The notes under the pieces: model-generated
Databases searched by the model: none
Told to the model about the DNA's origin: nothing
Seen by the model: only the letters and a program-made list of their open reading frames with translations
Position numbers and translations under genes: made by a program
DNA from: a bacterium
Lineage (GTDB): Bacteria; Zhuqueibacterota; Zhuqueibacteria; Oceanimicrobiales; Oceanimicrobiaceae
Direction of reading: 5' to 3'
Assembly: GCA_037446635.1 (NCBI GenBank)
Contig: JBBIIG010000003.1
Span: 130,735 to 167,740, forward strand
DNA: 37,006 nucleotides
Shown: positions 127 to 34,501 of the stretch, one piece after another
Layout of the letters: the number at the start of each line of letters is the position of its first letter
Numbering within the stretch: position 1 is the stretch's first letter

Positions 127-127
127 G

Positions 128-15783: not shown

Positions 15784-15808
15784 ATGCTACCTCTTACCAG
15801 ATTTCAAA

Positions 15809-16723: not shown

Positions 16724-16778
16724 TATTCACTCCATTTGTTGAAAAAACTCGAATGCGAAATATAAAGTTCAAATCGCC

Positions 16779-16847: not shown

Positions 16848-16877
16848 TAAAGATTCTCATCACTCAACTTCAAATTC

Positions 16878-19800: not shown

Positions 19801-20243
19801 TCGCCGGTGTTGACGTAACGGTTGTCGGTGGCTTCCAAAAACGTGAACAGCGGCCCCGGCACGTGCAGCGCCACCAACTCCAAATAGCGCTGCGTGAGAT
19901 GGGGATACTGCGCCGGCACCTGCCGCTCCGCGGTGCCGCTGGGCCAGTTCATTTCATCATAAACCCAAACATCGATGCCAATCTCTTTGGCTTTCGCCAC
20001 CACGAACTTCGCGCGCTCGAACCACTGCTCGGAAAGATACGGCACCTTCAATCCAAAGCGGCCGTGGATAAAAATTCCGGGGATGCCTTTGCGGTGATAC
20101 TCGCGCAGCTGCCACTCCATTTCTTTTGCGTCCAACTCGCCGTTCCAAAACCAGAACGGCAGAATGCCCATTTCGCGCGGCGGGGTTTTGAAGTTTTCTT
20201 TGGTAAGGGTTACGCCAGTGAGCAAGTTTTTTGAAAACGGCAT
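16878..20243 (-). CDS. Large cytoplasmic glycoside hydrolase, GH106-related (alpha-L-rhamnosidase-like) with GH2-type sugar-binding C-domains
   Basis: PFWFWNG, YLS.QWF, WVYDE.NWPSG, GFYTDEP, R.DFW, TGHL..EE, SAAHHFG..R.LCES, PPSQFY and YPFFSG. No signal peptide. Confidence 0.75.
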   Translation of the reverse strand: MPFSKNLLTGVTLTKENFKTPPREMGILPFWFWNGELDAKEMEWQLREYHRKGIPGIFIHGRFGLKVPYLSEQWFERAKFVVAKAKEIGIDVWVYDEMNWPSGTAERQVPAQYPHLTQRYLELVALHVPGPLFTFLEATDNRYVNTGDSKPVAAFACTAAEFDTEIKNLIDLTPNLSFNKVIPWEAPAGDWKLLYFLEKEVPYYIDALNPESTKRFLEVTHERYKNAVGADFGTIVPGFYTDEPAMHYYHVGLDNYVVPWSSQMFKIFRERRGYDLRPHLPALYTSIGAKTAQIRYDFWRTLTEQYSETYYKQIRDWCEANGVLFTGHLLFEEWLRLSARCEGNLFKHLRHMHIIGVDHLYPKIGTEAEPDQHVALKIGSSAAHHFGSTRLLCESMGGTYWDCSLERMKWMMNWEYVLGVNLFNNHGYHYSIEGERKRDWPPSQFYHHTWWKYYDQFTSYAARLSHILSGGRHVAKALVLYPINSIWANYVPQKRSAVGNVIESDFNYLTDTLLRLHYDFDYVDEDVLAEAEIVQSKHPPRSQLKRGRVQIKGGRIRIADEDYSILILPPVTHIKKSTLQQIRKFVAAGGNVIADTLLPIEYLESQKDGAVKDVQQLFGASPIKLLDDFQNGARFAVKQKRGKGKVFVVQGKGLHQAKKKAELKRILNLCAPPDVTISREEVFYLHRVKDGRDVYFFVNTGQQDLGRVEITFEQKMRPELWNPNTGEILPIHVFDVKDGRVVIELDFPASESHLVVMKEPLPESFISASNLQIEQFDENGIVGYGNPAQATAFAVVKNGRAVKRLKSPTKKALKPINFGRELDFKLEDDNALCIGKWKMTIENGDGYASGFHLPEFDDSGWLNVTQGAWEMQLPHERAQEIYPVTLWYRTSFLIGDLPPNTRLLIDGFSGSEHLLFVNGQPVNDPGRRSKLDAEIKELNIQPYLQVGRNLVAVKLTAMRRTDGILDLLKIIGDFTLEGGGKSAANAGTESKSLPAADFKIIAAKSRLKIGDWTRQGYPFFSGTASYSAEVEIPEKYLSGKLFLEADCGEDVLEVNVNGHTRVVPWHPYRVDITDMVRAGKNYFTLKVTNTVINILEGVQQASGLFSPPRIVHEHQYKLLAK

Positions 20244-20384: not shown

Positions 20385-21368
20385 TCAAAAATTCACAATC
20401 ATACTAAAGCGGTGCGGCGAATCCAAAAAATCATGGCTGACGAAGGCGTAATCAACGCGCAATTTCAAACCTGAGACTTTGGGTTGAAAGCCGGCGCCGA
20501 AAGAGATGTTGCCTTCCTCATGGTTGAAACGGTAGCCGCCGCGCAGCACGATAAAATTGCTGAAAGCATACTCGCCGCCAAGATGCAGCCGTTCTTTGTA
20601 ATCGTTGGTGTGGATGGCATCCATGTTGAAGGCGAAGCGGTGTTTTTCCGGACTGCCGCCGAAAAACAGCTTCTCGCCGCCCAACAGATCGATGGACCAA
20701 CCGATACGGAAAATCAGCGGCAGATCGAACTCCTGCTGCTCCTCCTCTTTGGTGTGCAGCCAACGCGCTTGTTTGCCAAAATTCTGCGCGCTCATGGCGA
20801 GCCGAATGCCGCGCCAGCCAGTGTGATAATACGTTCCAACGTCAAACGCCGCCACACTGCTGGAGAAATTGAACAACTCCTCGCGGACATACTTCACATT
20901 CACACCGATGGCGAGCTTGTCCGTGAACTTGCGTGAAAAAGCCAACCCGAGCGCGAGATCGTTGCCGCCAAAACTTTCGCCGGTGCGGGTGTCCACGCCG
21001 CCGCTGGGACTCGACACCAGGGCTTCATCAATATTGCCGTAATCGAGGGCAACGTAATTGAGCGACACTACGCCCAGCGTTCCAATTTGAAAACCCACGG
21101 CGCCGGCGGTGAAATTCAAATCGCCGAACCAGCGAGTATAATTAAACGCCGCCTCCGCACCGTCAATCTCGGCGATGGCGGCCGGATTCCAAAACACCGA
21201 GTTGATGTCTTCCATATTGGCTACGCCGGCTTCGCCCATGGCCGCCATGCGTGCGCCAATACCGATTTTCAAAAATTGCATGGCGGTGCGCCCGGCTTTG
21301 TTGAAATCCTGGGCGCGCACCTGAACAAAGGTCAAGGCGATCAGCAGTACAAACGTCCATCTTTTCAT
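20385..21368 (-). CDS. PorV/PorQ-family (UPF0164-like) outer-membrane beta-barrel
   Basis: Signal peptide; N-terminal FLKIGIGARMAAMGEA...SVFWNPAAIA; amphipathic beta-strands; RGGYRFN; DYAF..H..L...HRFS; C-terminal Phe. Confidence 0.85.
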   Translation of the reverse strand: MKRWTFVLLIALTFVQVRAQDFNKAGRTAMQFLKIGIGARMAAMGEAGVANMEDINSVFWNPAAIAEIDGAEAAFNYTRWFGDLNFTAGAVGFQIGTLGVVSLNYVALDYGNIDEALVSSPSGGVDTRTGESFGGNDLALGLAFSRKFTDKLAIGVNVKYVREELFNFSSSVAAFDVGTYYHTGWRGIRLAMSAQNFGKQARWLHTKEEEQQEFDLPLIFRIGWSIDLLGGEKLFFGGSPEKHRFAFNMDAIHTNDYKERLHLGGEYAFSNFIVLRGGYRFNHEEGNISFGAGFQPKVSGLKLRVDYAFVSHDFLDSPHRFSMIVNF

Positions 21369-21421
21369 GTTAGCCTCTCAATGAATGGCCTACCCTAAAA
21401 AAGGGGAGGAATTTTATTTCA

Positions 21422-23614
21422 TTAACGAATGATCATCAGCTTGCCGCTGAACTTCGATCCCACCGTGCCTTCGGTTTTCGATTCGACGACGTAAATGTAC
21501 AGACCCGGCGCCCCCAGCAAACCGGAGTCGCTGCGCTGGTCCCAGGCGGCGCTGCCAAACAGGTTGCCAATTTCATCCGGGCCGTGCTCGATGGTTTTGA
21601 TTAAATCGCCGGAAAGACTAAAAATTTTGATGGTGGCGCGCTCCGGCAAATTGCGAAATTCGATCTTTCGCGGCGTTGGTTCGCCGAAGCTGCGCAAGGG
21701 GTCGCCTTCAACATAGGGATTGGGCGCAACAAATACGTCCCAGCCCTGCGCAATTGAAACGGGGCCCGGCCGTGCGCCAATGAGGGGCGTGCGATTTTTA
21801 TCGCTGCTGACCAATTCGCCGAGATTGCTCACCACGCTGCCGTTGGCCGAAGTCCAGGTTCGTGGATCGCGGTTGTATGCCTGCACATAGTAGTAAAATT
21901 CAAACCCGAATTGCAGATCACGATCAAGATAAATATAGACCTGTTCATCTGCGTTCCAGTAGTTGTCAAACTCGGCGCACGGGATGTCTGCCACTAAATC
22001 CCACACGCCGCGCTTGTCGATCCCACGGTAGATGCGGTAGCCGTCGAGGTCGGTCGAGCCGTCGTAAAATATACCGCCGGCACCGTCGGTGATGACGGCT
22101 TCTTCCGCGCGCTTATCCCAACGCACCGAGATGATCGCCGAGTCGGAACTGACGGAGGCGTTAGCGGCATGGCAAGTGGGCGTGGGCGGCGGCTCGGGGA
22201 CATCGGCCGTCAATTGCAGGCCGTTCTCAACCGCACCGAAGCCCCAGGCCACGGCGTTGCGCGCCGCCTCGGCGTTGCGGCGGATGGCAGCAATCGAGCT
22301 GTCCGGGAACCAGTGATTGGGATCGCCTTTCACCACTTCATTCAAACTTAACATGCCAGCCACCTCCGCAAGGATGAGGCGAACGGAGTCGCCGGGCGCG
22401 AGGGTGTACGGGCCGAAAGAAGCGGTGTACCAGCAATACAAATTGCCATTATTGGGCGGCAGCTTATCGTGGCGCGCGAAATCGTAAATTTCCTGCGCGC
22501 TGAACCTTCCCAGACCAAACCCCTCGAAGTCCACGGTCTTGCCATTGAAGCGGTCGCCTTCATCGCTATAAATGTTGAAATAAGTTGGATCGGCATCGAA
22601 GGGATTGGGGCTGGCGCCAGTTGGCGGGGTGCGATATAAGAATACAAAACCAAAACAGGCCGGGTCTTGCAATTCGGGCAGCCATTCGGGCCGCAGGCGC
22701 AACAAATCCTGCCAGTTCTGTTTTAGGCCATATTGATCCCAGGGCACGGGCTCCCGGCCGCCATTGTAGTCGCGGCTGTAGAACAACAGTCCCTTGCCAT
22801 CTGGCCCCTGGTTTTCGACGGCGTAGTAGTCGGTATAGCCGCCGCCGGGATGCCAACCAAAGGCGCCGGCCGGGGCCGCGGAGGAAAGGAAGTCGGAATT
22901 GTAATGGAAGTTAATCATGCCTTTTGTGGAAACCTGCAAGCCGCTGTGAAAAACGATCCAAACTTCGTTGAGGGTTTGCTGGAGTTTTTCGACGCGATTG
23001 ACAGTGGGCAGCGCCATATCGCCGGTGTTCTTAAACACATAGTCAAAAATGATAAAGTCGCTAAAACCCGGAAAACTCCAGGCCATGGAGCGCTGTTTCA
23101 CGGTGATGCCGGTTGCCGTTTCAAAGCTGACGTAGTTCATCTCTTCGGGCAAAAGGGGATGATAGTCTGGCGACTCAATAAAATTCTCGGTGCGCACAAA
23201 CGGCTGAATGCTGGGTAACACGCCGTTATCGCCGGTATGCAAAGAAGCGTGGTAGATGAGAAAATCAGTGGGCTCTGGCGTAAAAGCCGGCGGCACCAGG
23301 GTCAGGGCGTCCTTGGCGATGATCCAGGGGCCACTGCGGAAATTGTGAAAATTGGCATCGGTGATGAAGCCGTTGGCGGTAATTTCATCGCTCGGAAAGG
23401 TGTAGCCGGAGAACCCGGGGTAAAAGCCGATCCCGGTAACCTGCAGATAATCCCACGCGCCGGGGTCACCGATGAATCCCCAATTATACAGCGTTTCCCA
23501 CAACCTGCCGCGGGTATGGGTTGCGGAATTCACCTGCGCTTGCAGCGGAAAAGTGATGCCTAACCACAAGACAAGCGCGGAGGCGGTGGACACTTTGGTG
23601 ATGATCTTTCTCAT
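21422..23614 (-). CDS. Exported protein of unknown function with FN3-like segment and CTD/FlgD-Ig-like C-terminal domain
   Basis: Signal peptide from ATG 23614. VPEPPPTP...W...E...DGYRIYRG...YYYVQAY (FN3-like). Tail VAPNPY...IEFRNLPERATIKIFSLSGDLIKTI...WD...PGLYIYVVE...KLMIIR. Confidence 0.75.
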   Translation of the reverse strand: MRKIITKVSTASALVLWLGITFPLQAQVNSATHTRGRLWETLYNWGFIGDPGAWDYLQVTGIGFYPGFSGYTFPSDEITANGFITDANFHNFRSGPWIIAKDALTLVPPAFTPEPTDFLIYHASLHTGDNGVLPSIQPFVRTENFIESPDYHPLLPEEMNYVSFETATGITVKQRSMAWSFPGFSDFIIFDYVFKNTGDMALPTVNRVEKLQQTLNEVWIVFHSGLQVSTKGMINFHYNSDFLSSAAPAGAFGWHPGGGYTDYYAVENQGPDGKGLLFYSRDYNGGREPVPWDQYGLKQNWQDLLRLRPEWLPELQDPACFGFVFLYRTPPTGASPNPFDADPTYFNIYSDEGDRFNGKTVDFEGFGLGRFSAQEIYDFARHDKLPPNNGNLYCWYTASFGPYTLAPGDSVRLILAEVAGMLSLNEVVKGDPNHWFPDSSIAAIRRNAEAARNAVAWGFGAVENGLQLTADVPEPPPTPTCHAANASVSSDSAIISVRWDKRAEEAVITDGAGGIFYDGSTDLDGYRIYRGIDKRGVWDLVADIPCAEFDNYWNADEQVYIYLDRDLQFGFEFYYYVQAYNRDPRTWTSANGSVVSNLGELVSSDKNRTPLIGARPGPVSIAQGWDVFVAPNPYVEGDPLRSFGEPTPRKIEFRNLPERATIKIFSLSGDLIKTIEHGPDEIGNLFGSAAWDQRSDSGLLGAPGLYIYVVESKTEGTVGSKFSGKLMIIR

Positions 23615-23647
23615 CTTGCACGCTCTCAAGTTAATCGTTTAAGAATT

Positions 23648-26512
23648 TCAAAATCCCAGGGCTAAACCAAACGCCCACACGCGCGGAAGATTACGAAACT
23701 GGATTTGGTCCGGAAACGGCGACCCGTCCGGGTTGCGCTCGGGAAACGCGGTAAAATTGGAGTTGATAAAACGCACCCGGTCTTCCGGCGACGCCGACTT
23801 CACGATGTTCAAATTCACCCACTTGTCGTTGAAGGCATTGCGCACTTCGACAAACAGCGCCGGGCGCAGATTCAGCCAGCGAAATTCTTTGCGCAGGCGA
23901 ATGTCGGCGTTGCGATCGGGCGGTCGTAAAAACTGCCGCCCGGCTTCGGAAAAGACATCGTTGGCGATCTGGCTGTGCGGGTAGTAAATCTGGTAATCCA
24001 TAGACAATTGCATGTTGGAAAGCAATCCGCCCAGCGGCGAGAAATCGCGCGGCGTGGCGATGATCACGCCAAATTTCAGGCGAATGGGATCGTAAAGGAT
24101 GAAGTCGCCGATATCGAAAACCTGCCCTACCTGGACATTGGAGCCTGGCGGGGCAATCACATCTGGATCGCCGGAACGGCCGCTAATGCCGGTGCTCCAG
24201 GAATAATTGAGATAGCCGCCCCAAATGCCGGTGAGGGGTTTGCGCAGCGAAATTTCCACGCCCTTGGCGTCGCCGTAATCGCCGTTGCCGGAGGTCAGGT
24301 AGCGGCCGCCGCTGCGCGTGATGACGGTGACCGTGCGCACGGTGTTGGTGATGTCTTTATAGAATGCCGTCACTTCGGCCACCAGGCCGCCGAAGTTGCG
24401 CTCGATGCCCAACTCGTACGCCACCGTTTTGCGCGGCTTCAATTCACGATTTCCTAAATTGAACGGCGCGGGTTGGCCAAAAGTCGGATTGGTGCGATAG
24501 GTGTTGAGAATGCCAAACACCTCGTAACCCTCGCCGTAATCGCCAAAACTGGCGCGTTGGAAAAAGTGGCCGTAGGAAAAATGCAGCACGGTGTTATCGG
24601 AAATCGGATGCGAAATGCCCAGGCGCGGGGATAGCTGCCCGAAGAGGGAAGTGGGCTTGGTTTCCGGATTCGGTTCCCGCCCTTCAATCGCCGAATCGTA
24701 CAAATCAAAAGGATCAAAAATATCCAAATAGATTTTGTTGTTGGGGTTGTAAAAATCATAACGCAGCCCCAAATTCATAATCAAGCCTTCAAATTCCAGC
24801 TTGTTCTGAAAATAGAGATTTCCTTCGTACGGGTGGTACACCTCGTCCTCGATCACATTGAAGGCTTTGGCCTCCTGTTGGCGATCAAGTATGTAATAGG
24901 TGAAATCACCGCCGGCTTTAATTTGCCAATATTTATTGAGCTGGCTGGTGAGGTCTGCGGAAAAAGTGAGATCGGTGTTTTTATCGCGGCCGCGATAGAA
25001 ATAGCCTGTGGTGTGCAAGCCCACAAAGTTACTGAAGGCTTCCGTGATGGGGTTGCCAAACGCGTCGCGGGCGCGCAGCCGATCCACCTGCGGCACGCCG
25101 GTTTCCCAGCCCGTGGAATCGCCGGGGAATACACCCTGAGAACGGAAGCGGTGCACGCGGGTCATTTGCAGTTCGTAGAAGGTATCTTTGTTAAGCACGT
25201 GCGTGAATTTCAGGGTCTGGCCATCGGTACGATTTTGTGGATAGCCCGGGAAGTCATAATGGGCATATTTGTTTCTAATGCCGTGGCCGGTCACCCAGTC
25301 CACGTCCATGAATTCCATGCCCTGATTGGTGTTGGCCTCGCTAAAGAAACCCGAAGCCAGCAGCTTCATATTTGAGCTGAAATTGTAGGTGAGCTTGGCG
25401 TTGGCGTCGTACCAGCTACCCATGTCGCGAATGCTGTTGCCAGTGATGGGCGGGGCGCTGCGGTACTTGCCAGAAATAAAGAAAAACATGTTCTTGATGG
25501 GAACCACTGGCCCGCCGATCGACATCTCGAGCTGATAGCTGCTGCGGTCGGTGTAATCGGTGAGCGGCTGATGGGTGTCGATGTAGTTCTGATAAGCTTC
25601 TTCCGGAGTCCAGATAGAGTTGGGATCGTTGCCGGGGGTGCCGTTGGGGTCCACCCACTGGTCGGGATTATCGATCCACCACTGCAGATGGCGGGCGTGC
25701 GTGTTTTCCCAGTAGCGCTCGGTGGAGTAGTCGTAAAGCGCGGTGCCCCAATGGCGTTTGCCGGGCGGCGTCCAGCGAAATTCGCTGTAGGCCTCCACGC
25801 GGCGGCTGCCTTCTTTGGTAACGATGTTAAAGATGCCGGATTGCGCTTCACCGTATTCGGCGTTGAAGCCGCCCGTGATCAATTCCAGTTCCTGAATTGC
25901 CGTGAGGTTGATGTTGGTGTAGGGCTCGAAATCGAGGGGATTGCGGGCACGAATGCCGTCGATCAAAAACGCCACTTGATCGAGGGTGCCGCGGCGCACC
26001 ACTAACTCGCCGGAGGAGCTGAGATCGATGCCGGGCAGGGTGGTCAAAATTTGTGTGAGCTGGGTAGTTGGGCGCGCCGCGATTTCCTCCGCCTGCACGA
26101 AATGGCGAGTGGAGGTGTTGTCTTTTTCGATTAGCGGGCGGTCAGCCATCACGGTGACGGTCTCGCCCACCTCCAGAATCGTTTCCTGCAACTGAAACTC
26201 GACGCGCGTGGTGTGGTCGCTGTTCACCACCACGCCAGTTTTGGTGATGGAGGTAAAACCGATCATCGTAACTTGCACCGCGTAGGTTCCGGGCGGAACA
26301 TTGAGGATATAATAGTCGCCCTCAATGTCGGTGGCGGCGCCCAGCGACGTGCCGGCAATGACTACGTTGGCGCCCGGCAGCGGCTCGCCGCGGGCGGCAT
26401 CGGTCACTCGACCGACGATTTTACCGGTGGTGCCAGCCCAAATGGAATGCGCGAAAGCGCCCACCAGCAGTAGTACAAGGTATTTATACAGGCTTGCTTT
26501 GTTAAACCACAT
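23648..26512 (-). CDS. TonB-dependent outer-membrane transporter with N-terminal carboxypeptidase-regulatory-like domain
   Basis: GTTGKIVGRVTD..GEPLPGANV; plug motif AIQELELITGGFNAEYG...SG..NIVTKEG; GLRYDF; SPRLGISHPI; GN.ELKP.KT.AYELG; C-terminal Phe. Confidence 0.93.
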   Translation of the reverse strand: MWFNKASLYKYLVLLLVGAFAHSIWAGTTGKIVGRVTDAARGEPLPGANVVIAGTSLGAATDIEGDYYILNVPPGTYAVQVTMIGFTSITKTGVVVNSDHTTRVEFQLQETILEVGETVTVMADRPLIEKDNTSTRHFVQAEEIAARPTTQLTQILTTLPGIDLSSSGELVVRRGTLDQVAFLIDGIRARNPLDFEPYTNINLTAIQELELITGGFNAEYGEAQSGIFNIVTKEGSRRVEAYSEFRWTPPGKRHWGTALYDYSTERYWENTHARHLQWWIDNPDQWVDPNGTPGNDPNSIWTPEEAYQNYIDTHQPLTDYTDRSSYQLEMSIGGPVVPIKNMFFFISGKYRSAPPITGNSIRDMGSWYDANAKLTYNFSSNMKLLASGFFSEANTNQGMEFMDVDWVTGHGIRNKYAHYDFPGYPQNRTDGQTLKFTHVLNKDTFYELQMTRVHRFRSQGVFPGDSTGWETGVPQVDRLRARDAFGNPITEAFSNFVGLHTTGYFYRGRDKNTDLTFSADLTSQLNKYWQIKAGGDFTYYILDRQQEAKAFNVIEDEVYHPYEGNLYFQNKLEFEGLIMNLGLRYDFYNPNNKIYLDIFDPFDLYDSAIEGREPNPETKPTSLFGQLSPRLGISHPISDNTVLHFSYGHFFQRASFGDYGEGYEVFGILNTYRTNPTFGQPAPFNLGNRELKPRKTVAYELGIERNFGGLVAEVTAFYKDITNTVRTVTVITRSGGRYLTSGNGDYGDAKGVEISLRKPLTGIWGGYLNYSWSTGISGRSGDPDVIAPPGSNVQVGQVFDIGDFILYDPIRLKFGVIIATPRDFSPLGGLLSNMQLSMDYQIYYPHSQIANDVFSEAGRQFLRPPDRNADIRLRKEFRWLNLRPALFVEVRNAFNDKWVNLNIVKSASPEDRVRFINSNFTAFPERNPDGSPFPDQIQFRNLPRVWAFGLALGF

Positions 26513-26551
26513 AATGTTACCCCAAGCTAAGGTTTAGCAACACGCGTAATA

Positions 26552-26584
26552 AACCTTGACAGGGTTGCGAACCCTGTCAGGGTT
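26552..26584. repeat. REP-like double palindrome (AACCCTGWCAGGGTT x2)
   Basis: aaccttgacagggtt-gcg-aaccctgtcagggtt. Confidence 0.85.
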
Positions 26585-26596
26585 GGCGAAAAACGA

Positions 26597-27547
26597 TCAA
26601 AACACCATCACTGATTTGATGAACCCCTTCGGCTTTACCTTCGCCGCCGTGAACGCCTCTTCGATCCTTTCCAAGGGAAAGGTGTGGGTGATGAGCGGCG
26701 CCATGTTCAACTGCCGCGCGTTGAGCAATTGCATGCCGACACGCGCGCCGTTAAGAATCGTTTGCAGGTTGCGAAAATGCGCGTTGATGATATCGAACGC
26801 CATCCAGTTCCAATAGCCGAGATGTTTGATCTGGCGCGGCCCGGGATGATAGCCGAAAATCACCAGCTTGCCTTCCATACGAATAATATCCGCGGCTAAG
26901 TCCAGCGTGGCTTGCACGCCGCCAACTTCAAATGCAACATCGGCGCCGCGGCCCTCAGTCAGGGATTTGATTTTTTCCACGACGTTATCGCGCTTGGGAT
27001 TGAAGACCACATCCGCGCCCAAGCGCTGCGCCAGTTCCAACATTTCATCGCGAACATCGATGGCAATGATCGGGCGGGCGCCGCGCAGTTTGATCTCCTG
27101 CAGCAGGATCAAACCCATGAAACCGGTACCCACCAGCGCCACGGAATCGCCGAGATGAATGTTCGCCTTTTCGACGCCGTTAACGGTGCAAGAGATCGGC
27201 TCGGCCAACGCTTGTTCAAACGGCACATGCTCAGCCATGGGAAACAACTGTGATTCCTTCACCGCCACTTCTTCGGCGTAGCCGGCGCGGTCGGTCCACA
27301 CCGCCACACGATCGCCGGGCTGGAAGCGCGAAACCCGTGAGCCGCACTGCCGCACTTCGCCCGCGACTTCGTGGCCGATGAAGCGCGGATAGTCCAGCCC
27401 CGCTTCTTTCACATCCCATTGGTGGATTTCGGAATGGCAGACGCCGCAAGCGCGGACTTGAATCAAGCATTCGTCGTCGGCCATTTTGGGCGAAGGCCGG
27501 TCTTCGATGCGGAAATCGTGTGGGCCGTGTAAAACTGCGATACGCAT
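26597..27547 (-). CDS. Zinc-binding (MDR superfamily) sugar/polyol dehydrogenase
   Basis: CGVCHSE, IGHE.AG, LAEP.SC and GTGFMG nucleotide-binding motif. The four-Cys structural zinc lobe is absent. Confidence 0.9.
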   Translation of the reverse strand: MRIAVLHGPHDFRIEDRPSPKMADDECLIQVRACGVCHSEIHQWDVKEAGLDYPRFIGHEVAGEVRQCGSRVSRFQPGDRVAVWTDRAGYAEEVAVKESQLFPMAEHVPFEQALAEPISCTVNGVEKANIHLGDSVALVGTGFMGLILLQEIKLRGARPIIAIDVRDEMLELAQRLGADVVFNPKRDNVVEKIKSLTEGRGADVAFEVGGVQATLDLAADIIRMEGKLVIFGYHPGPRQIKHLGYWNWMAFDIINAHFRNLQTILNGARVGMQLLNARQLNMAPLITHTFPLERIEEAFTAAKVKPKGFIKSVMVF

Positions 27548-27562
27548 ATTCTTGTTTATTAA

Positions 27563-27595
27563 AACCCTGTCAGGGTTTGAAACCCTGACAGGGTT
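27563..27595. repeat. REP-like double palindrome (AACCCTGWCAGGGTT x2)
   Basis: aaccctgtcagggtt-tga-aaccctgacagggtt, a perfect inverted repeat. Confidence 0.88.
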
Positions 27596-27603
27596 AGGTT
27601 CAA

Positions 27604-29556
27604 CTACTTCATCAACGTCATTTTCCTGGTTTCCACCACGCCGCCAGCTTCAATGCGATAGATGTACACGCCGCTGGAAAGATTTTCAGCGTTCCAGGTA
27701 ACTGAATAAGTACCGCTGGACAGGGTTTTGTTGTCAATGAGCGTCGCCACAAGCTGCCCCAACACGTTGTACACTTTCAGCGTCACCGGGCCGGTTTTGG
27801 CCAAATCGAAACGGATGGTGGTGCTGGGGTTAAACGGATTGGGGTAGTTCTGGCTCAGCGAGAACCGCACCGGTTGCGTGGTAGGGTCGGGTTGCAACTC
27901 AACTGAGGTGACATTTTCTAAGACGAAATTCAAGATAGCCCAGTATTGGGAAGTCACCAACGTATAATAGCCAGGGTCGTTCGCGCCCACCGGATCCCCA
28001 TACGGATCGTCCGGCACGTTCGGCTGCCAGCAGTAATACGCGTACGCATCCCCAAATTGCTCGTGCGCCTGCGTCGAACCCGTGCTGCCGCCGATGTTGA
28101 ACCCTATGCACGACTGCCCATTCACATGCGGATTATAAATCGCTAACTCCACGTCCCACACCCCATTCTCCAAATCAATCGTCGTCGCCATGCGCGCTAT
28201 CGCCCCAGCATCAAACACCCGCTGTGAATCCGCAAACGTACACCGCCACTCCTCCGGAATGTAGGTCTCATTCCCCGCGTTCAACGTCAACTGATCCCCC
28301 ATAATCAAAAAATGATACGGCCCATCCGGCGCCGCGTACACGTTGCCGTCGTACCAACCCTGCAAATCCACTCCCAAGCGATTCGACAAACCCACAAACA
28401 ACTGATCCCCACTCCACTGCCCCGGCCAAAATAAATCCGTCGAATCGTTCACAATCTCATCAATATGAATGAACACATACAGCGTGTCCTCCGACCACAG
28501 CATCCGCGCGTAGTACTCATCGTAGTCCGGCTCCGTCAACGACTCCCGATAGTACTTGTTCGTCCAGATCTCGTACCCCGACGCCGTGATCAAATTCGCC
28601 TGCGCGCCGGCCGACCAGACTTCCTCCATGAGGCCGTCAATGACAACCGTGCCGGGATCGACCATCGGCACATTGACTTCCTTGCGAATGACCACTTCTG
28701 GCGGTGGGACGAATTTCAAGATAGCCCAGTATTGGGAAGTCACCAACGTATAATAGCCAGGGTCGTTCGCGCCCACCGGATCCCCATACGGATCGTCCGG
28801 CACGTTCGGCTGCCAGCAGTAATACGCGTACGCATCCCCAAATTGCTCGTGCGCCTGCGTCGAACCCGTGCTGCCGCCGATGTTGAACCCTATGCACGAC
28901 TGCCCATTCACATGCGGATTATAAATCGCTAACTCCACGTCCCACACCCCATTCTCCAAATCAATCGTCGTCGCCATGCGCGCTATCGCCCCAGCATCAA
29001 ACACCCGCTGTGAATCCGCAAACGTACACCGCCACTCCTCCGGAATGTAGGTCTCATTCCCCGCGTTCAACGTCAACTGATCCCCCATAATCAAAAAATG
29101 ATACGGCCCATCCGGCGCCGCGTACACGTTGCCGTCGTACCAACCCTGCAAATCCACTCCCAAGCGATTCGACAAACCCACAAACAACTGATCCCCACTC
29201 CACTGCCCCGGCCAAAATAAATCCGTCGAATCGTTCACAATCTCATCAATATGAATGAACACATACAGCGTGTCCTCCGACCACAGCATCCGCGCGTAGT
29301 ACTCATCGTAGTCCGGCTCCGTCAACGACTCCCGATAGTACTTGTTCGTCCAGATCTCGTACCCCGACGCCGTGATCAAATTCGCCTGCGCGGCATCTCC
29401 CCAAGCCGGCTCATCCATCACGCCGTTGATGGTCATAGCAGATGGAGTGACATACGGCACTTCAACGACTTTGCGCTCGGTGGGCTGCGCCGTCAACAAG
29501 GCCGCCAACCCCAGAACGCAAACGCCGGTTAACGAAATTAAAATCAATTTTTTCAT
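27604..29556 (-). CDS. Secreted protein with two tandem CBM9/DOMON-like domains and a T9SS type-A-like C-terminal sorting domain
   Basis: Signal peptide. Two domains each begin I(N/D)G.M.E..W and contain ARMLWSEDTLYVFIHI.D. Tail FSLSQNYPNPFNPSTTIRF...LKVYNVLGQLV...SSGVYIYRI...TRKMTLMK. SD AGGAGG. Confidence 0.85.
   Translation of the reverse strand: MKKLILISLTGVCVLGLAALLTAQPTERKVVEVPYVTPSAMTINGVMDEPAWGDAAQANLITASGYEIWTNKYYRESLTEPDYDEYYARMLWSEDTLYVFIHIDEIVNDSTDLFWPGQWSGDQLFVGLSNRLGVDLQGWYDGNVYAAPDGPYHFLIMGDQLTLNAGNETYIPEEWRCTFADSQRVFDAGAIARMATTIDLENGVWDVELAIYNPHVNGQSCIGFNIGGSTGSTQAHEQFGDAYAYYCWQPNVPDDPYGDPVGANDPGYYTLVTSQYWAILKFVPPPEVVIRKEVNVPMVDPGTVVIDGLMEEVWSAGAQANLITASGYEIWTNKYYRESLTEPDYDEYYARMLWSEDTLYVFIHIDEIVNDSTDLFWPGQWSGDQLFVGLSNRLGVDLQGWYDGNVYAAPDGPYHFLIMGDQLTLNAGNETYIPEEWRCTFADSQRVFDAGAIARMATTIDLENGVWDVELAIYNPHVNGQSCIGFNIGGSTGSTQAHEQFGDAYAYYCWQPNVPDDPYGDPVGANDPGYYTLVTSQYWAILNFVLENVTSVELQPDPTTQPVRFSLSQNYPNPFNPSTTIRFDLAKTGPVTLKVYNVLGQLVATLIDNKTLSSGTYSVTWNAENLSSGVYIYRIEAGGVVETRKMTLMK
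27929..28606. repeat. 678-bp intragenic direct repeat, copy A
   Basis: Compared line by line with 28715-29392 (offset 786 nt = 262 codons); no mismatch seen. Confidence 0.95.
28715..29392. repeat. 678-bp intragenic direct repeat, copy B
   Basis: Identical by eye to 27929-28606. Confidence 0.95.
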
Positions 29557-29630
29557 GACAACTCCTCCTGAATAAAGGTTAGTTTAAAACATCACCCAAT
29601 ATTCACCGCTGTATCCGGAAACTTGCGTTC

Positions 29631-29641
29631 ATCACCTCCTT
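29631..29641 (-). promoter_or_regulatory. Extended Shine-Dalgarno-like site with no properly spaced start codon
   Basis: The minus strand reads AAGGAGGTGAT, an 11-nt complement of the canonical 16S 3' end, about 75 nt upstream of the start at 29556. That gene has its own SD. Confidence 0.45.
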
Positions 29642-29663
29642 CAGCAGTTGGTTCCCGAAAAGT

Positions 29664-30962
29664 TTAAAGGCGATAGCGGATGGCCACCACCGGCAGAATC
29701 ACATTCGAGTCGTAGGTTCCAGCCACACCGCTGTTCACGGTGGAATCAATCTCACGAGCCTGGCCGATGGCATAGGCCAATGCGGCATCGAGGGCGATAC
29801 GTCCGCTCTGGTAACCGATGCCCGCGGCAAACCAGTGTTGATGAACGCCGGGCAGCAATAAGCTGTACGTGGCAGCGCTGTTGGGGCTTTGGCTGAAGCG
29901 GTAGCTGGCGCGATAGCTCCACTGCTCATTATAAATGAATTCGTATCCGATTCCGAGCTCCAGCGTGTTGTCGAAATTCAGCGGCAGGCGATCGCCGCGG
30001 AAACCCGTCACGGTATCGGTTGCCGCCAAGCCGGTTTGCCAGACGGCGTCGCTGAAGGTGAAGCGTAGTTCATCCTGGGTGCTGCCCCAGAGATGGTAAG
30101 CGGCGTCGAGATTCAATTCTGAACGCGCGCCTATTTTGTAGGCCAGGCCGACGCCCATCACCCACGGCATCTCGAATTCGCTGGAGAGCGCAACTTGAGC
30201 CGGCGCGCCGTAGAGATCCGCAAGCAAGTTGCTCACGGCCTCGCCTTCCAGGTCGGCGGCGTAAGCCGTGCGCACCAATCCGCCCACGCGAAATTGATTT
30301 GAGAGCTCCGCGCTTAGGCCAACGTTCACCCCGAATGCCCAGGCGTTTTGATCATATTCAACCTGGTAGGCCGATAACCCGCGATTCTGATACCAGCCCG
30401 CGTTCGCCAAAGGAAAATCTGAACGCTGGGTGAAGCGATACAGGTTGGCGCTCAAGCCCACCGCGACGCGACCCAACTTGAATGCTGCCGCCGGCGTGAT
30501 AGCATCAATGGTAAGTTGGTTGAACAGGTCGAATACCAGCACCACCGAGCTGCCGGGTTTTTCGCGAAACATGGCAAACGGCCACTCGACGCGAAAGTCC
30601 GCGGCACGGTAGTAAGCCACACCCGCCGCCAGGCTCTCCGACATTCGCCAGAACGCGCCGCCGGCAAACGAAAAGTGATTGGCGCGAAACGAACGAAACA
30701 ACCCATCCGCGGGGGAGTCGAGATACTGGCGGCCGGCGCGATCCAAAACCGCGAATTGCAGAAAACGGCCGCTGCTACGCAACAGCGCTGCCGGATTGGC
30801 CGCCGCCGCGGCGAGGCCATCGCCGCCGGCAAAATAGAGGCCGTTGCGGGCGAAGGTGCGCGCTCCGAAGACCGGCAAAAAATTGGTATCGCCCGCGGGC
30901 AAAATTTCAGCGATGCCCAGAAGGCCAACAATCACAATTAAAAACCTCTTCTTGGCTGTCAT
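29664..30962 (-). CDS. FadL/OmpP1-family outer-membrane beta-barrel
   Basis: True start MTAKKRFLIV (ATG 30962, GGAG SD); signal peptide; GAR......FAGGDG.AAAAANPAAL hatch motif; amphipathic strands; C-terminal IRYRL. Confidence 0.8.
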   Translation of the reverse strand: MTAKKRFLIVIVGLLGIAEILPAGDTNFLPVFGARTFARNGLYFAGGDGLAAAAANPAALLRSSGRFLQFAVLDRAGRQYLDSPADGLFRSFRANHFSFAGGAFWRMSESLAAGVAYYRAADFRVEWPFAMFREKPGSSVVLVFDLFNQLTIDAITPAAAFKLGRVAVGLSANLYRFTQRSDFPLANAGWYQNRGLSAYQVEYDQNAWAFGVNVGLSAELSNQFRVGGLVRTAYAADLEGEAVSNLLADLYGAPAQVALSSEFEMPWVMGVGLAYKIGARSELNLDAAYHLWGSTQDELRFTFSDAVWQTGLAATDTVTGFRGDRLPLNFDNTLELGIGYEFIYNEQWSYRASYRFSQSPNSAATYSLLLPGVHQHWFAAGIGYQSGRIALDAALAYAIGQAREIDSTVNSGVAGTYDSNVILPVVAIRYRL

Positions 30963-30984
30963 GCTATCTCCCAGTCGCTCATTT

Positions 30985-31938
30985 TTAAAAAGTCCGGAAC
31001 GTGGCAAAGGCGTAGAAATTCGTTGACCGCAGCCGCGAAGCGCGATCCCAACTGTTGTTGCCGATCCAGATATAGTAGTTTTTATTTCGCTCCAGCCCAC
31101 TAAATTCGTTGAAGACGCGGGTTTCCGGAAAAGCTTGTCCAAGAATCAAGGGCGCGGAGATCACATTCTTCGTGCCATAGACAGGATTGCCGCCCACGAT
31201 TTCCTCCGACCACATTTCCCACACCACCTTGTTGGGATCGAACTGCTGCCCCTCGGTGATGCCAATGGCGGCGACTTGCGGATCCGTAACGCCGGCCTGA
31301 GTGATTTGCCAAGTCACCACCACGTCGGCGCTAAGGGTGGGCTGAATCACATCCAACACGCCCAGTCTTCCGAGAGGACGGACGTCGGCGATGTTGACGA
31401 AAACATCCAGCGCTTGATGGAGATGGGCAAAAACACTGGCGTTCACCAATACCGTGTCGTTTCGCACGCTTACCATGCTGCCGGTCAACGTTGGATCCTC
31501 CTTGAGCGTTTTGCCGGCGTTGGCCGCTGCCAGAGTCCAGGCGTCTTTTTTCATGAGCCAAAACGTATAAACATTATCCTCTTCGAGACGATCAGCGCTT
31601 TGACCGCCGTATTGCTGCGTCAAAACCTGCGCGCCGGCCGGCGCCTCGCCAAACTTAACGGGAAAGCGGATGTCATCTTCATCGGCAGCGATGAGCCAAA
31701 CGAGTGTGGAATCGAGGCGGGCGACACTGCCGCGATTGACACCCAACGCCGCAACGTACCCGCCCACCCAAGTTATTCTGGGAACGAAGCTTCCCGATTC
31801 CACTAAAATGCCGGACAACTCCCGCTGCCCCTGGTAGGGTGCGAGAGAATTGTCGTCGCTGCAGGAGAAGGCGAGTAAGAATCCGGCAAGGCACGTTGCC
31901 GCCCAACCCAATCGAAATTGCCCAAAAATCCTGCTCAT
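30985..31938 (-). CDS. Lipoprotein of unknown function with two homologous beta-rich domains
   Basis: Lipobox-like LAFS-C followed by SDDN; internal two-fold similarity (see findings). Confidence 0.75.
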   Translation of the reverse strand: MSRIFGQFRLGWAATCLAGFLLAFSCSDDNSLAPYQGQRELSGILVESGSFVPRITWVGGYVAALGVNRGSVARLDSTLVWLIAADEDDIRFPVKFGEAPAGAQVLTQQYGGQSADRLEEDNVYTFWLMKKDAWTLAAANAGKTLKEDPTLTGSMVSVRNDTVLVNASVFAHLHQALDVFVNIADVRPLGRLGVLDVIQPTLSADVVVTWQITQAGVTDPQVAAIGITEGQQFDPNKVVWEMWSEEIVGGNPVYGTKNVISAPLILGQAFPETRVFNEFSGLERNKNYYIWIGNNSWDRASRLRSTNFYAFATFRTF

Positions 31939-31979
31939 ATTTTAACCTCGACCTTTTTTAAGTATCCACTCTTTCGTGA

Positions 31980-33392
31980 TTAGAGCCGCTTTAGTAATTC
32001 CTGCCAGTGCGGATTATGCACCTCATCTTCTTTATTCGAATGCAGCAACACGTAACGGCCGTCGGAACGTAAATCCCCAAACACAAATTCATAGCGGCGA
32101 TCCCGGCGGTAAATCCAAATTTCGTAGGGCGTAGTCTCGGCCTCGCTGGCGTAGTGTTCGATCTCATCCGGCATGCCGTTTTGGATGAGCACGCGGCCGC
32201 GGTCGCTCTCCACGCCGTCATTTTTCCCCCAGCTAAAATATTGCTTGCAGTACTGCACCCGCTGCTGAATTTGTTCGAGGAATTCGTTGCGCAGCGTGCC
32301 GGGCGTGGGGTCGCGGTCGCGCCAAAAGCGCAGGAGAAAGTGCGCTTTAGCGGTTTTGGTCAAGTGTTCAAAAATTTTCAGCTCATCGGCGTTGGCAAGA
32401 TGCTTAAGAACTTTGGCGGCTTGCTGCGCTTGTTCCTCGCTGATCTCCGGCGGAGATGAAGCGTAATCAAGCTGAATCACCTCAAAAGCCCGCGTTCGAG
32501 TAGTGAGCAATCGTCCGCCGGCGTCTTGAATTGCGGCTTCCAGCTCGTAGATTCCGGAAGGGATTCGCGAGACGTCGAAGCCGTGCAAAACGCCCGCCTG
32601 CCAGTGGCCTCTGGCCTGCCTGTGCGGGGAGGCGAGCAGACCGGTGGTTGCGCTTGGCCGGCGCACCTCCATCGCGGGCAGGGATTTCACCGGCGCGCCG
32701 TCCATTTGGCGGATGGTGTACGCCGCTTTGAAACTCGACCCGAGCGATTCCGGCAGGTTGTAAATTTCATAATAAAAATAGAGGATGGAGTTCAGCGCGC
32801 CGTAGCGCCGCGCCGGATTGGGAATGACCGTGCGGTTGCCTTTGACGAAATGATCGCGAGCCGCGCCCTCTTCCGCATAAGAAACAAATTCGATCTCGCT
32901 GGCTGCGACTCCGGCTTCGTTAAATTCCGGCACATGCAAATCAAATTTCGCCAGTCCACTGGCGGCGCCCTTCAAATCTTTCACCGCCAGCTGACAGGAA
33001 TAGATGCCGGGGGAAAGCTCGGCGGCCCAAACGTCGTAAATCGCGAGCGCCTTCAAATCGGCGGAATCCTGCGCCACCACGGCGTCGGTGGTCCAGCGGT
33101 GCTGGCTGATTTGATAGGTGGCCAAATTTTGCAGCGTCAAGTTGGCCTCGTAGGTGGCCACTCTTTTTTCTGACTGCGTTGAGTATTGCAGTTGATCGCT
33201 GTACAGCATCAAATAAATTTCCTGATAGGTTTTATCCGACTGGCCGCGGAAGCCAGCGAAGTCAACATAGAAGCGCAACTCGCCGGTGGAAACCACCGGC
33301 GCGTCGTTGGTTTTCGCATGGCGGGTTATCGCCGTCATCCCAAAGATAAACGGGAAAACGACAGCGAAGAATTTTTTGCATGAACAGTTCAT
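31980..33392 (-). CDS. GWxTD-domain protein
   Basis: FW..RDPTPGT.RNEF.....QRVQY, signature variant DGVESDRGRVLI..G.PDEIE, and PYEIWIY...FVF.D....G.Y.L.HS. Hydrophobic N-terminus and Ig-like N-terminal region. Confidence 0.85.
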   Translation of the reverse strand: MNCSCKKFFAVVFPFIFGMTAITRHAKTNDAPVVSTGELRFYVDFAGFRGQSDKTYQEIYLMLYSDQLQYSTQSEKRVATYEANLTLQNLATYQISQHRWTTDAVVAQDSADLKALAIYDVWAAELSPGIYSCQLAVKDLKGAASGLAKFDLHVPEFNEAGVAASEIEFVSYAEEGAARDHFVKGNRTVIPNPARRYGALNSILYFYYEIYNLPESLGSSFKAAYTIRQMDGAPVKSLPAMEVRRPSATTGLLASPHRQARGHWQAGVLHGFDVSRIPSGIYELEAAIQDAGGRLLTTRTRAFEVIQLDYASSPPEISEEQAQQAAKVLKHLANADELKIFEHLTKTAKAHFLLRFWRDRDPTPGTLRNEFLEQIQQRVQYCKQYFSWGKNDGVESDRGRVLIQNGMPDEIEHYASEAETTPYEIWIYRRDRRYEFVFGDLRSDGRYVLLHSNKEDEVHNPHWQELLKRL

Positions 33393-33563: not shown

Positions 33564-34397
33564 TCAGTCTTTGAGTCCGCTGAGCGTGATGCCGCGGATG
33601 AAATATTTTTGCGCGAAAAAGAACACCAGCAAAATCGGCAGCGTGGCGGTGACCGAGCCGGCCATCAAGTGATCCCACTCGGTGCGGTAGCGATCGCGGA
33701 AAATCGCCAATCCCAATTGCACGGTTTGCATCTCTTCGGAATTGACAACAATCAGCGGCCACAGAAAATCGTTGAAAAAAAACATAAAAATGAAAATGCC
33801 GAGGGTGGCAAGCGCTGGTTTGGAAAGCGGCAGAATGATCCGCCACAAAACCATGAAGCGGCTGCAGCCGTCGATGAACGCGGCTTCTTCCAATTCGCGC
33901 GGAATAGTCAGGAAAAATTGCCGCAGCAAAAAGGTGCCGAACGCCGACGCCAGCCCGGGCACGATGAGCGCGGCGTAGGTATCGATCCACCCCAGCCAGT
34001 GCATCACCATGAAAGTGGGGATCATCGTCACCTGGCCGGGGATCATCATGGTGCCGAGGAAGAGGAGGAACAAAACGTCGCGGCCCCAGAAACGCAGGCG
34101 CGCAAAAGCATACGCCGCCATCGAGCAGGTGATCAATTGCCCGAAGGTGCATGACAGCGCCACAATAAATGTGTTGAGATAAAATCTCCCAAACGGCGCC
34201 GCGCGAAAGGCATTCACATAATTTTCAAATTTGAAGGTTTCGGGCAGCCAGCGCGGGGGATAAACCAAAATTTCAGTGATGGGCTTTATTGAGGTCAACA
34301 CCATCCAGAGGAACGGCGCCACCGTGGCGGCCGCGGCGGCGTAAACCACGAGGTGCAGCAGGATCAATTTGGCTATTTTCAGAAACGGTGAACGCAT
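33564..34397 (-). CDS. Carbohydrate ABC transporter permease (MalG-like, CUT1)
   Basis: PFLWM..TS.K, AAYAFARL, EAA loop IPRELEEAAFIDG, NDFLWPL and QKYFIRG. Confidence 0.95.
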   Translation of the reverse strand: MRSPFLKIAKLILLHLVVYAAAAATVAPFLWMVLTSIKPITEILVYPPRWLPETFKFENYVNAFRAAPFGRFYLNTFIVALSCTFGQLITCSMAAYAFARLRFWGRDVLFLLFLGTMMIPGQVTMIPTFMVMHWLGWIDTYAALIVPGLASAFGTFLLRQFFLTIPRELEEAAFIDGCSRFMVLWRIILPLSKPALATLGIFIFMFFFNDFLWPLIVVNSEEMQTVQLGLAIFRDRYRTEWDHLMAGSVTATLPILLVFFFAQKYFIRGITLSGLKD

Positions 34398-34418
34398 ATC
34401 AGGTTCAAAAATTTTTTC

Positions 34419-34490
34419 ACCGCAAAGGCGCTAAGACGCTAAAAATGAATAGAGCGGTTTTTGATTTCTCAAACATTGCGTCTTTGCGGT
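34419..34490. repeat. Short inverted-repeat element (CGCAAAG...CTTTGCG type)
   Basis: accgcaaaggcgctaagacgctaa ... ttgcgtctttgcggt. Confidence 0.75.
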
Positions 34491-34501
34491 TAACGTTTAG
34501 C

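Follow-up and report, generated by a model that had tools for sequence, protein, structure and literature searches.

SusC/SusD pairs serve as a marker for finding glycan-uptake loci. In these pairs, and in utilisomes, SusD is described as capping the transporter (PMC11658791). Type IX secretion (T9SS) offers two further points of comparison. First, in the attachment complex of Porphyromonas gingivalis, PorQ is described as anchoring PorZ, and PorV as anchoring PorU, at the cell surface (PMC5562754). Second, PorP-like barrels are described as shuttling and anchoring type B cargo (PMC9143113; PMC12618676). Here, we describe a locus, within a 37,006-nt stretch of bacterial DNA (“the window”), that resembles each of these systems in part. 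Its core is a trio of genes encoding a TonB-dependent transporter, a secreted-type protein of 730 aa (“the partner”), and a PorV-family barrel. A literature search found no published description of the trio.

Gene content of the locus

An earlier note on this DNA had listed a TonB-dependent transporter, proteins with C-terminal domains (CTDs), barrels, a lipoprotein and a GWxTD protein. All are present, all on the minus strand, and Pfam, NCBIfam and the sequence itself bear out their identities; a zinc-binding dehydrogenase gene between the two groups had been overlooked (Table 1). In transcription order, the genes encode the GWxTD protein, the lipoprotein, the FadL-like barrel, the CBM9-like protein, the dehydrogenase, the transporter, the partner, and the PorV-family barrel, with intergenic gaps of 22–107 nt across this run. 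Counts from scans for promoters and for terminators are at chance level (8 versus 10.7 by chance, and 29 versus 26.2, respectively). The catabolic genes downstream encode GH106, a ribokinase-family kinase, RbsD/FucU, an aldo-keto reductase, and GH39-like, ureidoglycolate-lyase-like and DUF6259 proteins, together with Gfo/Idh/MocA, a TIM-barrel isomerase, GH42, an MFS transporter, a PIG-L deacetylase, and a six-hairpin hydrolase-like protein (128–2467) that has no solved relative by sequence. If the family names GH106, RbsK and RbsD are any guide, the target glycan might contain rhamnose or ribose. With a transporter and carbohydrate-active enzymes clustered in a conserved order, the locus looks, by its gene content, like a polysaccharide utilisation locus in the broad sense, and the partner sits at the position that SusD would take within the carbohydrate-enzyme cluster.

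Table 1. Features of the locus, with positions in the window
Feature	Position	Strand	Basis
TonB-dependent transporter, 954 aa, core gene 1	23648..26512	-	Pfam PF13620, PF07715, PF00593
Secreted-type partner, core gene 2	21422..23629	-	Start at TTG 23629 (735 aa) or at ATG 23614 (730 aa)
Beta-supersandwich domain of partner, model residues 23-471 (predicted)	22202..23548	-	VIA-align, Foldseek
C-terminal sorting-type domain of partner, V-x-PNPY class, model residues 618-730 (predicted)	21425..21763	-	VIA-align to PorZ
PorV/PorQ-family barrel, 327 aa, core gene 3	20385..21368	-	NF033709
Zinc-binding dehydrogenase, 316 aa	26597..27547	-	PF08240, PF00107
Tandem CBM9-like protein, ordinary type-A CTD, 650 aa, conserved accessory	27604..29556	-	TIGR04183
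FadL/OmpP1-family barrel, 432 aa, optional accessory	29664..30962	-	PF03349
Lipoprotein, two Ig/FN3-like beta-sandwich domains, 317 aa, accessory	30985..31938	-	Predicted model
GWxTD-domain protein, 470 aa, optional accessory	31980..33392	-	TIGR04514
Upstream part of cluster: sugar ABC transporter with its binding lipoprotein and two permeases	33564..36813	-	PF01547/PF13416, PF00528
Downstream catabolic genes	128..20243	-	Pfam, NCBIfam

Conservation and duplication of the trio

The true unit of the locus is the trio. We fetched 80 relative loci, 66 of which were testable for trio adjacency, and counted genes with tblastn. Transporter, partner and barrel genes are adjacent in 65 of the 66, meaning that the gene order is not due to chance. 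The surroundings are also conserved: GH106 lies downstream of the trio in 58/60 testable loci, RbsD does so in 48/50, and the zinc-binding dehydrogenase is found upstream in all 43 loci examined. At one locus (L077), the partner gene adjoins neither a barrel nor a transporter gene. We also considered 20 regions, 19 of them distant and one a close orthologue, that surround the top matches elsewhere in the window's phylum. In all 18 regions that extend far enough upstream, a transporter gene lies upstream of the partner gene. A PorV-family barrel gene adjoins a partner gene in 19 of the 20. The synteny survey that the earlier note had proposed shows that the trio is kept across Ignavibacteria, KSB1, Marinisomatota and Calditrichota, as well as in records from Rhodothermia and Kryptonia.

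The source genome has six copies of the trio, each with its own enzyme set, and the binding-type domain diverges between the paralogues. The same paralogues pair with one another for all three genes (C3 with C21, and C1 with C26), which argues that the trio duplicates as a unit. In the tree of barrels, the six trio barrels do not form one clade (2 changes; one clade in 32% of bootstrap trees). Over 49 loci, the distances of the three genes correlate at 0.76–0.94 throughout; shared descent accounts for this, and it is given no weight here.

The lipoprotein, FadL-like and GWxTD genes are optional accessories. The FadL-like gene is present in 31/43 loci. The lipoprotein gene is present in 40/43, and its Cys26 is invariant in all 34 aligned homologues. 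The two halves of the lipoprotein are related to one another (hhalign probability 90%), and its predicted model (pLDDT 91.4) resembles FN3 and Ig domains in a generic way (Z no higher than 7.1); it is likely a surface glycan-binding protein. The GWxTD protein scores 87 bits against TIGR04514 (cut-off 28), and five of the seven GWxTD copies in the source genome are at TonB-transporter loci, including SusC/D-type loci.

Transporter, barrel and the SusC/SusD comparison

The transporter has a carboxypeptidase-regulatory-like N-terminal domain, a plug and a barrel, but it does not belong to the SusC/RagA subfamily: it scores 88 bits against TIGR04056 (cut-off 368), compared with 401 and 590 bits for two SusC proteins of the same genome. 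The barrel encoded downstream of the partner is a member of the PorV/PorQ family (NF033709, 207 bits; cut-off 90) and matches Flavobacterium johnsoniae PorV (6h3i_F) with a phmmer E-value of 3e-11. It is, however, neither an equivalog of PorV (NF033710, 88 versus 250 bits) nor of PorQ (NF033711, 112 versus 220 bits), and it falls below the cut-off for PorP/SprF (PF11751, 15.9 versus 22.3 bits).

The locus shares with SusC/SusD loci the order of a transporter gene followed by a surface-partner gene among carbohydrate enzymes, as well as a nearby Ig-domain lipoprotein and CBM-type protein. It differs in that the transporter is not SusC, and in that the partner is a beta-rich non-lipoprotein with its own barrel and a tail of T9SS type, whereas SusD/RagB is a helical lipoprotein. 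The view that the locus lacks a SusD holds up: the partner has no Pfam match, a lipobox-like Cys is absent in all 95 homologues checked, and the sole PF07980 match of the source genome lies elsewhere. The fold matches listed for the partner include no SusD-family structure, an absence that by itself excludes nothing. The trio had also been put forward as an alternative to SusC/D in non-Bacteroidota FCB lineages. This is too narrow, because SusC/SusD-type pairs coexist with the trio in the source genome and because the trio also occurs in Ignavibacteria and Rhodothermia. GTDB puts both in or next to Bacteroidota.

Fold and tail of the partner

A profile search of the partner against sequences of solved structures gave nothing at E up to 1, and the nearest ESM Atlas clusters of both the partner and the lipoprotein are unnamed. 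Few proteins of this kind are as small as the window's partner, at 730 aa. Its predicted model is mainly beta-strand (pLDDT 92.4, pTM 0.89) and has three parts: a beta-supersandwich, an FN3-like domain, and a tail that resembles the PorZ sorting domain in shape. The predicted supersandwich matches 5nz7 (VIA-align Z 17.9, rmsd 3.9, 275 aligned residues) and 2cqs (Z 17.6), in agreement with Foldseek; it resembles the N-terminal domains of GH94, GH65 and GH15 enzymes and the galactose mutarotase fold. Unlike these enzymes, the partner lacks the catalytic helical barrel and has large insertions (~275 of 449 residues align), with 5–13% identity.

The partner has the two parts expected of T9SS cargo, i.e., a hydrophobic N-terminus that reads as a signal peptide and a C-terminal beta-sandwich sorting domain. 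The tail, in which the motif VAPNPY...PGLYIY...KLMIIR had been recognised earlier, superposes in the model on PorZ 680–776 (5m11; VIA-align Z 11.9, rmsd 2.3, 91 aligned residues), and its sole NCBIfam match is the tail of PorU. No type-A CTD was detected (no TIGR04183 or PF18962 match at E up to 0.05), nor any match to the type B tail family. A profile of the tail, searched against the source genome, returned the six trio partners as its top six matches.

The tail class goes with a neighbouring barrel. In the source genome, a barrel lies directly downstream of each of the five V-x-PNPY tails, whereas three of 93 ordinary type-A tails (N[YF]PNPFN) have any barrel adjacent, with both classes set by our own motif patterns after the data had been seen. 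Together with the likeness to PorQ–PorZ, this suggests that the barrel likely tethers the partner. Seven other barrel-adjacent tails in the source genome have no transporter alongside, so a protein paired with a barrel need not be a lid. The earlier proposal that each barrel exports or displays the CTD protein beside it is likely to hold for the PorV-family barrel and the partner, but is not supported for the FadL/CBM9-like pair (see below).

The trio differs from the described barrel systems in several ways. PorZ–PorQ and PorU–PorV each occur once, as housekeeping components of the secretion apparatus, whereas the trio provides many paralogous barrels, each encoded with a partner and a nutrient-type transporter, and scoring below both equivalog cut-offs in the window's case. 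As with SprB–SprF and PG1035–PorP, cargo and private barrel are encoded side by side; however, the barrel here is PorV-family, the partner has no type B tail match, and the transporter is part of the unit.

Secretion machinery

A genome-wide T9SS search, of the kind suggested earlier, recovered part of the canonical system: the SprA translocon and the PorU sortase score over cut-off in the source genome, but the GldL/GldM motor and GldK/GldN ring were not detected. None of the four Gld proteins gave a match over cut-off in this genome, which is 97% complete, in searches whose controls were detected; highly diverged forms are possible. Likewise, SprA was over cut-off in all 30 other trio-bearing genomes tested, and GldM was below cut-off in all 30. 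In F. johnsoniae, the motor is described as necessary for T9SS export (PMC10994853). The apparent absence of GldLM makes the energy source of T9SS in these organisms a separate question.

A possible mechanism and its alternatives

We think it probable, from the genomics and the predicted models, that the trio is a conserved unit in which the partner is exported via SprA, tethered by the barrel, and acts at the surface as the glycan-capture partner of the transporter. First, the partner would be exported by Sec as a non-lipoprotein, as its sequence reads. Second, the co-encoded barrel, rather than the general PorV, would very likely collect the tail at SprA, judging from the genomics and from the known PorV, PorQ and PorP pairs. 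Third, there is a good chance that the tail remains uncleaved and that the partner is displayed on the barrel in the way PorZ is on PorQ. Fourth, the variable supersandwich probably binds an oligosaccharide and hands it over to the transporter. Fifth, the remaining steps of utilisation would fall to the cluster's enzymes, both in the periplasm and in the cytoplasm, and to its ABC and MFS transporters. In this reading, the partner would capture glycan for the transporter or cap it; that it forms a lid seated on the transporter, as SusD does, is possible, if somewhat doubtful. A complex prediction with transporter residues 236–790 (a partial barrel) and partner residues 33–476 gave no answer (score 0.00 in two runs, of this pair alone) and counts neither way.

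The barrel might instead be a mere shuttle that takes the partner from SprA and then releases it or hands it to PorU, leaving the partner as a free or LPS-linked glycan binder away from the transporter. PorU is indeed present, and cognate shuttles are described as setting both the secretion and the final location of type B cargo in F. johnsoniae (PMC12618676). Moreover, at two loci (L127 and L133) one barrel is common to two partners, so the pairing is not strictly 1:1. However, PorZ and PorU, whose tails are similar to the partner's, remain on their barrels, and a shuttle leaves the retention of the transporter, and its co-duplication with partner and barrel, unexplained. We regard this as unlikely.

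An enzymatic role for the partner is improbable. In this case, a lyase-, mutarotase- or hydrolase-like enzyme, tethered by the barrel at the surface, would cleave or modify glycan beside the transporter. The supersandwich fold is catalytic in mutarotases; mutarotases and lyase domains are among the further fold neighbours of the supersandwich (Z 11–14), and H90, N91, E157 and E158 are invariant in the close family. By contrast, the best fold matches are N-terminal domains that we take to be non-catalytic, and several hydrolases are already encoded in the cluster. Among 112 distant homologues, in an alignment that is perhaps too poor to reveal catalytic residues, the tail is strongly conserved, but no catalytic-type supersandwich residue is invariant, with H90 kept in 17% and N91 in 33%.

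Export or display of the CBM9-like protein by the FadL-like barrel appears quite improbable. The FadL-like gene is directly before the CBM9-like gene in 32 of 43 testable loci, and the barrel does belong to the FadL/PorV fold family (PF03349, 61.7 bits; cut-off 29.7), although far under the FadL equivalog cut-off. However, the FadL-like gene is missing in 11/43 loci that have the CBM gene, 90 of the 93 type-A tails have no adjacent barrel, and the FadL-like barrel scores 20 bits against the PorV-family cut-off of 90. In a profile comparison, it matches the PorV-family alignment over only 26 columns. A candidate for a general PorV is encoded elsewhere in the genome (C5; NF033710, 242 bits, cut-off 250), and the CBM9-like protein, with its type-A tail (QNYPNPFNP; TIGR04183, 46 bits, cut-off 23), would take the general PorV/PorU route. 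Nine of 37 aligned members of the CBM9-like family match PF06452 (best E-value 5.6e-16), and the window's own scores 13.5 bits (cut-off 23.4); its gene contains a perfect internal duplication of 678 nt.

Finally, the trio might be structural or serve in assembly, acting as a surface layer, an adhesin, a chaperone of the transporter or a sensor, with no role for the partner in substrate capture; we regard this as highly improbable. In its favour, one genome has six trios whose partners, of ~700–1200 aa, share scaffold and tail, and the homologues fall into 1577 clusters (E up to 1e-10), of which many match largely through the tail region. Against it, the binding-type domain diverges between paralogues and the trios keep their own enzyme sets, as substrate-specific parts would.

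Implications

Tentatively, the trio may represent a second, lipoprotein-free architecture for assisted uptake across the outer membrane, widespread in FCB lineages: a complex of three proteins in which a beta-supersandwich lid, exported by the T9SS, would hinge on the cognate PorV-family barrel and close over a transporter from a distinct TonB-dependent subfamily. The T9SS concerned would have SprA, PorU and many PorV paralogues, but neither a GldLM motor nor a GldKN ring, and would be powered in some other way. SusC/SusD pairs are described as scarce in gene clusters of Ignavibacteriales (PMC10576277). If our reading of the trio as a glycan-capture unit is correct, it would explain how glycans are captured in lineages where SusC/SusD is scarce and would provide a new marker for the uptake loci of such lineages. 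The reading can be tested, since the same cluster is present in the genome of a cultured isolate, Rosettibacter primus strain 4148-Me (L024), and the partner is small. The reading would also assign a function to a large family of proteins that lack annotation, as well as to the many PorV paralogues, and would tie type IX secretion directly to nutrient import.

Conservation of the trio

A TonB-dependent transporter, a secreted-type partner with a T9SS-type tail, and a PorV/PorQ-family barrel are encoded side by side in the window. All window genes lie on the minus strand, with intergenic gaps of 22–107 nt, and the entire window is a single glycan-utilization cluster, with a sugar ABC transporter upstream. 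The gene positions in the earlier note were all borne out, with one omission, the zinc dehydrogenase.

Genes and sites in the window (in gene order) and in G000, the genome that holds it (C-numbers are its contigs)
Feature	Location	Strand	Remark
GWxTD protein	window 31980-33392	-	
Lipoprotein		-	two related Ig/FN3-like domains
FadL-like barrel	window 29664-30962	-	
CBM9-like protein	window 27604-29556	-	type-A tail
Repeat in CBM9-like domains	window 27929-28606 and 28715-29392		678-nt perfect DNA duplication
Zinc dehydrogenase	window 26597-27547	-	
TonB-dependent transporter	window 23648-26512	-	
Partner	window 21422-23629	-	730/735 aa
PorV/PorQ-family barrel	window 20385-21368	-	
13 downstream catabolic/transport genes		-	include GH106, RbsK-family kinase, RbsD/FucU, reductases, GH39-like, DUF6259, GH42, MFS, deacetylase, six-hairpin hydrolase-like
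Short tandem duplication	window 1-130		~60 nt, just downstream of the cluster's last gene; repeated peptide in open frames
GWxTD genes at transporter loci	C3, C6, C26, C31, C67		
Best general PorV candidate	C5:102983-107292 (L084)		then M6-like inactivated metalloprotease with type-A-like tail
1147-aa protein	C10:65217-68660		matches short SprA-model stretch (604-688); similar 1150-1260-aa frames in many related genomes
Non-canonical tails directly 5' of PorV-family genes, without transporter	C2:28004, C14:55456, C25:4310, C42, C53:16104, C62:21081, C93:3178		several barrels fused to long C-terminal extensions (~690-1150 aa total)

Scoring of 7,998 candidates gave 336 partner homologues at E ≤ 0.001; among the 120 listed, the majority are 60–80% identical, with Ignavibacteria, KSB1, Calditrichota, and Marinimicrobia as named sources. 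In the best 80 of 197 relatives confirmed by genome scan, the transporter is immediately 5′ of the partner in 72 of the 73 loci whose flanks are long enough, the barrel is immediately 3′ in 71/72, and both adjoin the partner in 65 of 66 testable loci, upholding the gene-order conservation on which the earlier note's reading depended. In the exception (L077:9869–12094), a partner gene with 50% identity has neither transporter nor barrel beside it; it stands between a LacI-like gene (label read from sequence) and lipoprotein and ABC genes.

Because the 80 close loci represent one inherited cluster, distant homologues were also sampled, as 20 regions, one per genome, taken from the best matches (one is a close orthologue). 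The transporter lies 5′ of the partner in all 18 regions with upstream DNA, being partial at the edge in L133 and separated by a barrel in L127; the contigs of the other two, L119 and L132, end before upstream DNA. A PorV-family barrel adjoins a partner gene in 19/20; in the remaining region, L123, a second partner-like gene comes next, and then the contig ends. Two partners accompany one barrel in L127 (transporter-barrel-partner-partner) and L133 (partner-barrel-partner). In the window's phylum, 37/41 genomes carry partner matches at E ≤ 1e-12, many of which span the tail region only.

G000 (97% complete) has six trios, one interrupted by a contig end, and 25 PorV-family matches, 16 of them over cut-off. 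By score, the closest paralogues are the same for all three trio genes (C3 with C21, C1 with C26). The barrel tree groups C3 with C21 at 96/92 and five of the six trio barrels at 94/96; one clade for all six was not recovered. The trio and SusC/SusD architectures coexist in G000: two transporters exceed the SusC cut-off, and a lipoprotein gene is next at three such loci.

The partner protein

The partner was modeled confidently (pLDDT 92.4, pTM 0.89). Residues 23–471 are predicted to fold as a beta-supersandwich, resembling the N-terminal domains found in GH94, GH65, and GH15 enzymes (Z 17.9, rmsd 3.9, 275 aligned; Foldseek concurs). An FN3-like domain follows (FN3 entries are among the Foldseek matches; we set its boundaries at 478–615), and residues 618–730 superpose on the PorZ sorting domain (Z 11.9, rmsd 2.3, 91 aligned). 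No lipobox was found in the 95 homologues checked. The partner is therefore not SusD by predicted fold and lipobox absence, in agreement with the earlier note, which had recognized no SusD.

A profile search returned 1,577 clusters at E ≤ 1e-10. In an alignment of 110 distant full-length matches and two close ones, scaffold Gly/Pro residues and the tail are conserved. H90 and N91 are invariant in the close family but reach only 17% and 33% in the distant alignment. This conservation pattern is consistent with a constant scaffold carrying a binding module that varies.

Tail classes and secretion machinery

In a search of G000 with a profile of the partner tail, the six trio partners took the top ranks. 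With the patterns defined post hoc and non-independent paralogues counted, V-x-PNPY tails in G000 have a barrel directly downstream in 5/5 cases; N[YF]PNPFN tails have an adjacent barrel in 3/93, the window's CBM gene among the three; and under a wider pattern the figures are 13/29 for non-canonical versus 3/87 for canonical tails. In the distant partner family, 91/110 carry a V/I-x-PNP-Y/F tail and 0/110 the canonical form.

SprA is over cut-off in G000 and in 30/30 genomes drawn from the 80-locus set, and G000 also has PorU and >100 type-A cargo genes. The T9SS of these genomes is apparently motor-less, with GldL, GldM, and GldN not detectable. GldM exceeds cut-off in 0/30 (one weak match) versus 9/41 in a phylum-wide control, and GldN and GldL were found in 0/11 trio carriers, including G000, versus 3/3 controls chosen for GldM presence, in searches where most assemblies are incomplete and diverged forms could escape detection. 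For GldK, G000 has no more than weak partial matches.

The FadL/CBM pair and accessory genes

All 43 loci whose upstream DNA extends to 8.8 kb or more have the CBM gene and the dehydrogenase, and the latter always separates the CBM gene from the transporter. Counted within a 10-kb flank, which may miss relocated genes, the accessory sets are (i) GWxTD, lipoprotein, and FadL in 27; (ii) lipoprotein and FadL in four; (iii) lipoprotein only in nine; and (iv) none in three. The suggestion that the FadL-like barrel exports or displays the CBM9-like protein fared poorly: FadL directly precedes the CBM gene in only 32/43 testable loci, the barrel scores 20 bits against the PorV family, and G000 has a shared route for ordinary cargo (a general PorV candidate, PorU, and 115 type-A tail matches).

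The internal repeats of relatives' CBM9-like genes are 70%–100% identical, versus ~55% orthologue identity to the window's protein; one-domain variants (L017, L034, L049, L079) and a longer 885-aa variant (L071) also occur. This suggests recurrent collapse and re-duplication or gene conversion, with assembly artefact as the alternative.

Two Ig/FN3-like domains, as in the accessory lipoprotein, are a build typical of surface glycan-binding proteins. Five of the seven GWxTD genes in G000 accompany TonB transporters, and every one of the three SusC/D-type loci has one, so GWxTD associates with transporters of both architectures and not with the tail system; the remaining two are a tandem pair on C5 amid housekeeping genes. 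The term GWxTD was absent from the full-text literature searched. By analogy, an oxidative route to glycoside cleavage may be encoded jointly by the zinc dehydrogenase gene and those of the Gfo/Idh/MocA, TIM-barrel, and aldo-keto reductase types. From family names alone, we would guess a rhamnose- or ribose-containing glycan as substrate.

Possible mechanisms

From the observed gene order, families, tail classes, and SprA presence, and from predicted folds, we infer the following. First, the co-encoded barrel would gather the partner tail at SprA, as PorV gathers type A cargo tails (PMC10994853). Second, it would retain that tail uncleaved, as PorQ retains PorZ (PMC5562754). Third, it would thereby display the supersandwich beside the transporter, where oligosaccharide would be captured. 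We consider this reading, in which the barrel gathers, holds, and displays a partner that captures oligosaccharide for the transporter, somewhat favored; its strict form, with the partner as a lid on the transporter, is more tentative. It is unlikely that the barrel is a pure shuttle, releasing a partner that it does not hold. Slightly less likely still is a surface enzyme: no catalytic helical barrel of GH94/GH65/GH15 follows the supersandwich in the model, and no invariant catalytic-type residue was found in it across the distant alignment, where alignment error could mask a catalytic site. A structural role for the trio is improbable. Of the earlier note's interpretation, the non-SusD partner, the dedicated PorV-family barrel, and the conserved trio stand, and the FadL/CBM pair does not.

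No description of the trio was found in the full-text literature searched, whose coverage largely excludes subscription journals, and T9SS and PorV go unmentioned in the part of PMC11658791 covered. In a xylan locus of Rhodothermus marinus, a SusC/D pair is flanked by Rmar_1070 (TonB receptor), a CTD-bearing hypothetical, a further hypothetical (Rmar_1072), and another CTD-bearing hypothetical, Rmar_1073 (PMC6987092, Table 1); Rmar_1070–1072 may be a trio already in print, unrecognized. The trio consists of known parts in an arrangement that we did not find described, a widespread and testable putative variant of assisted TonB uptake.
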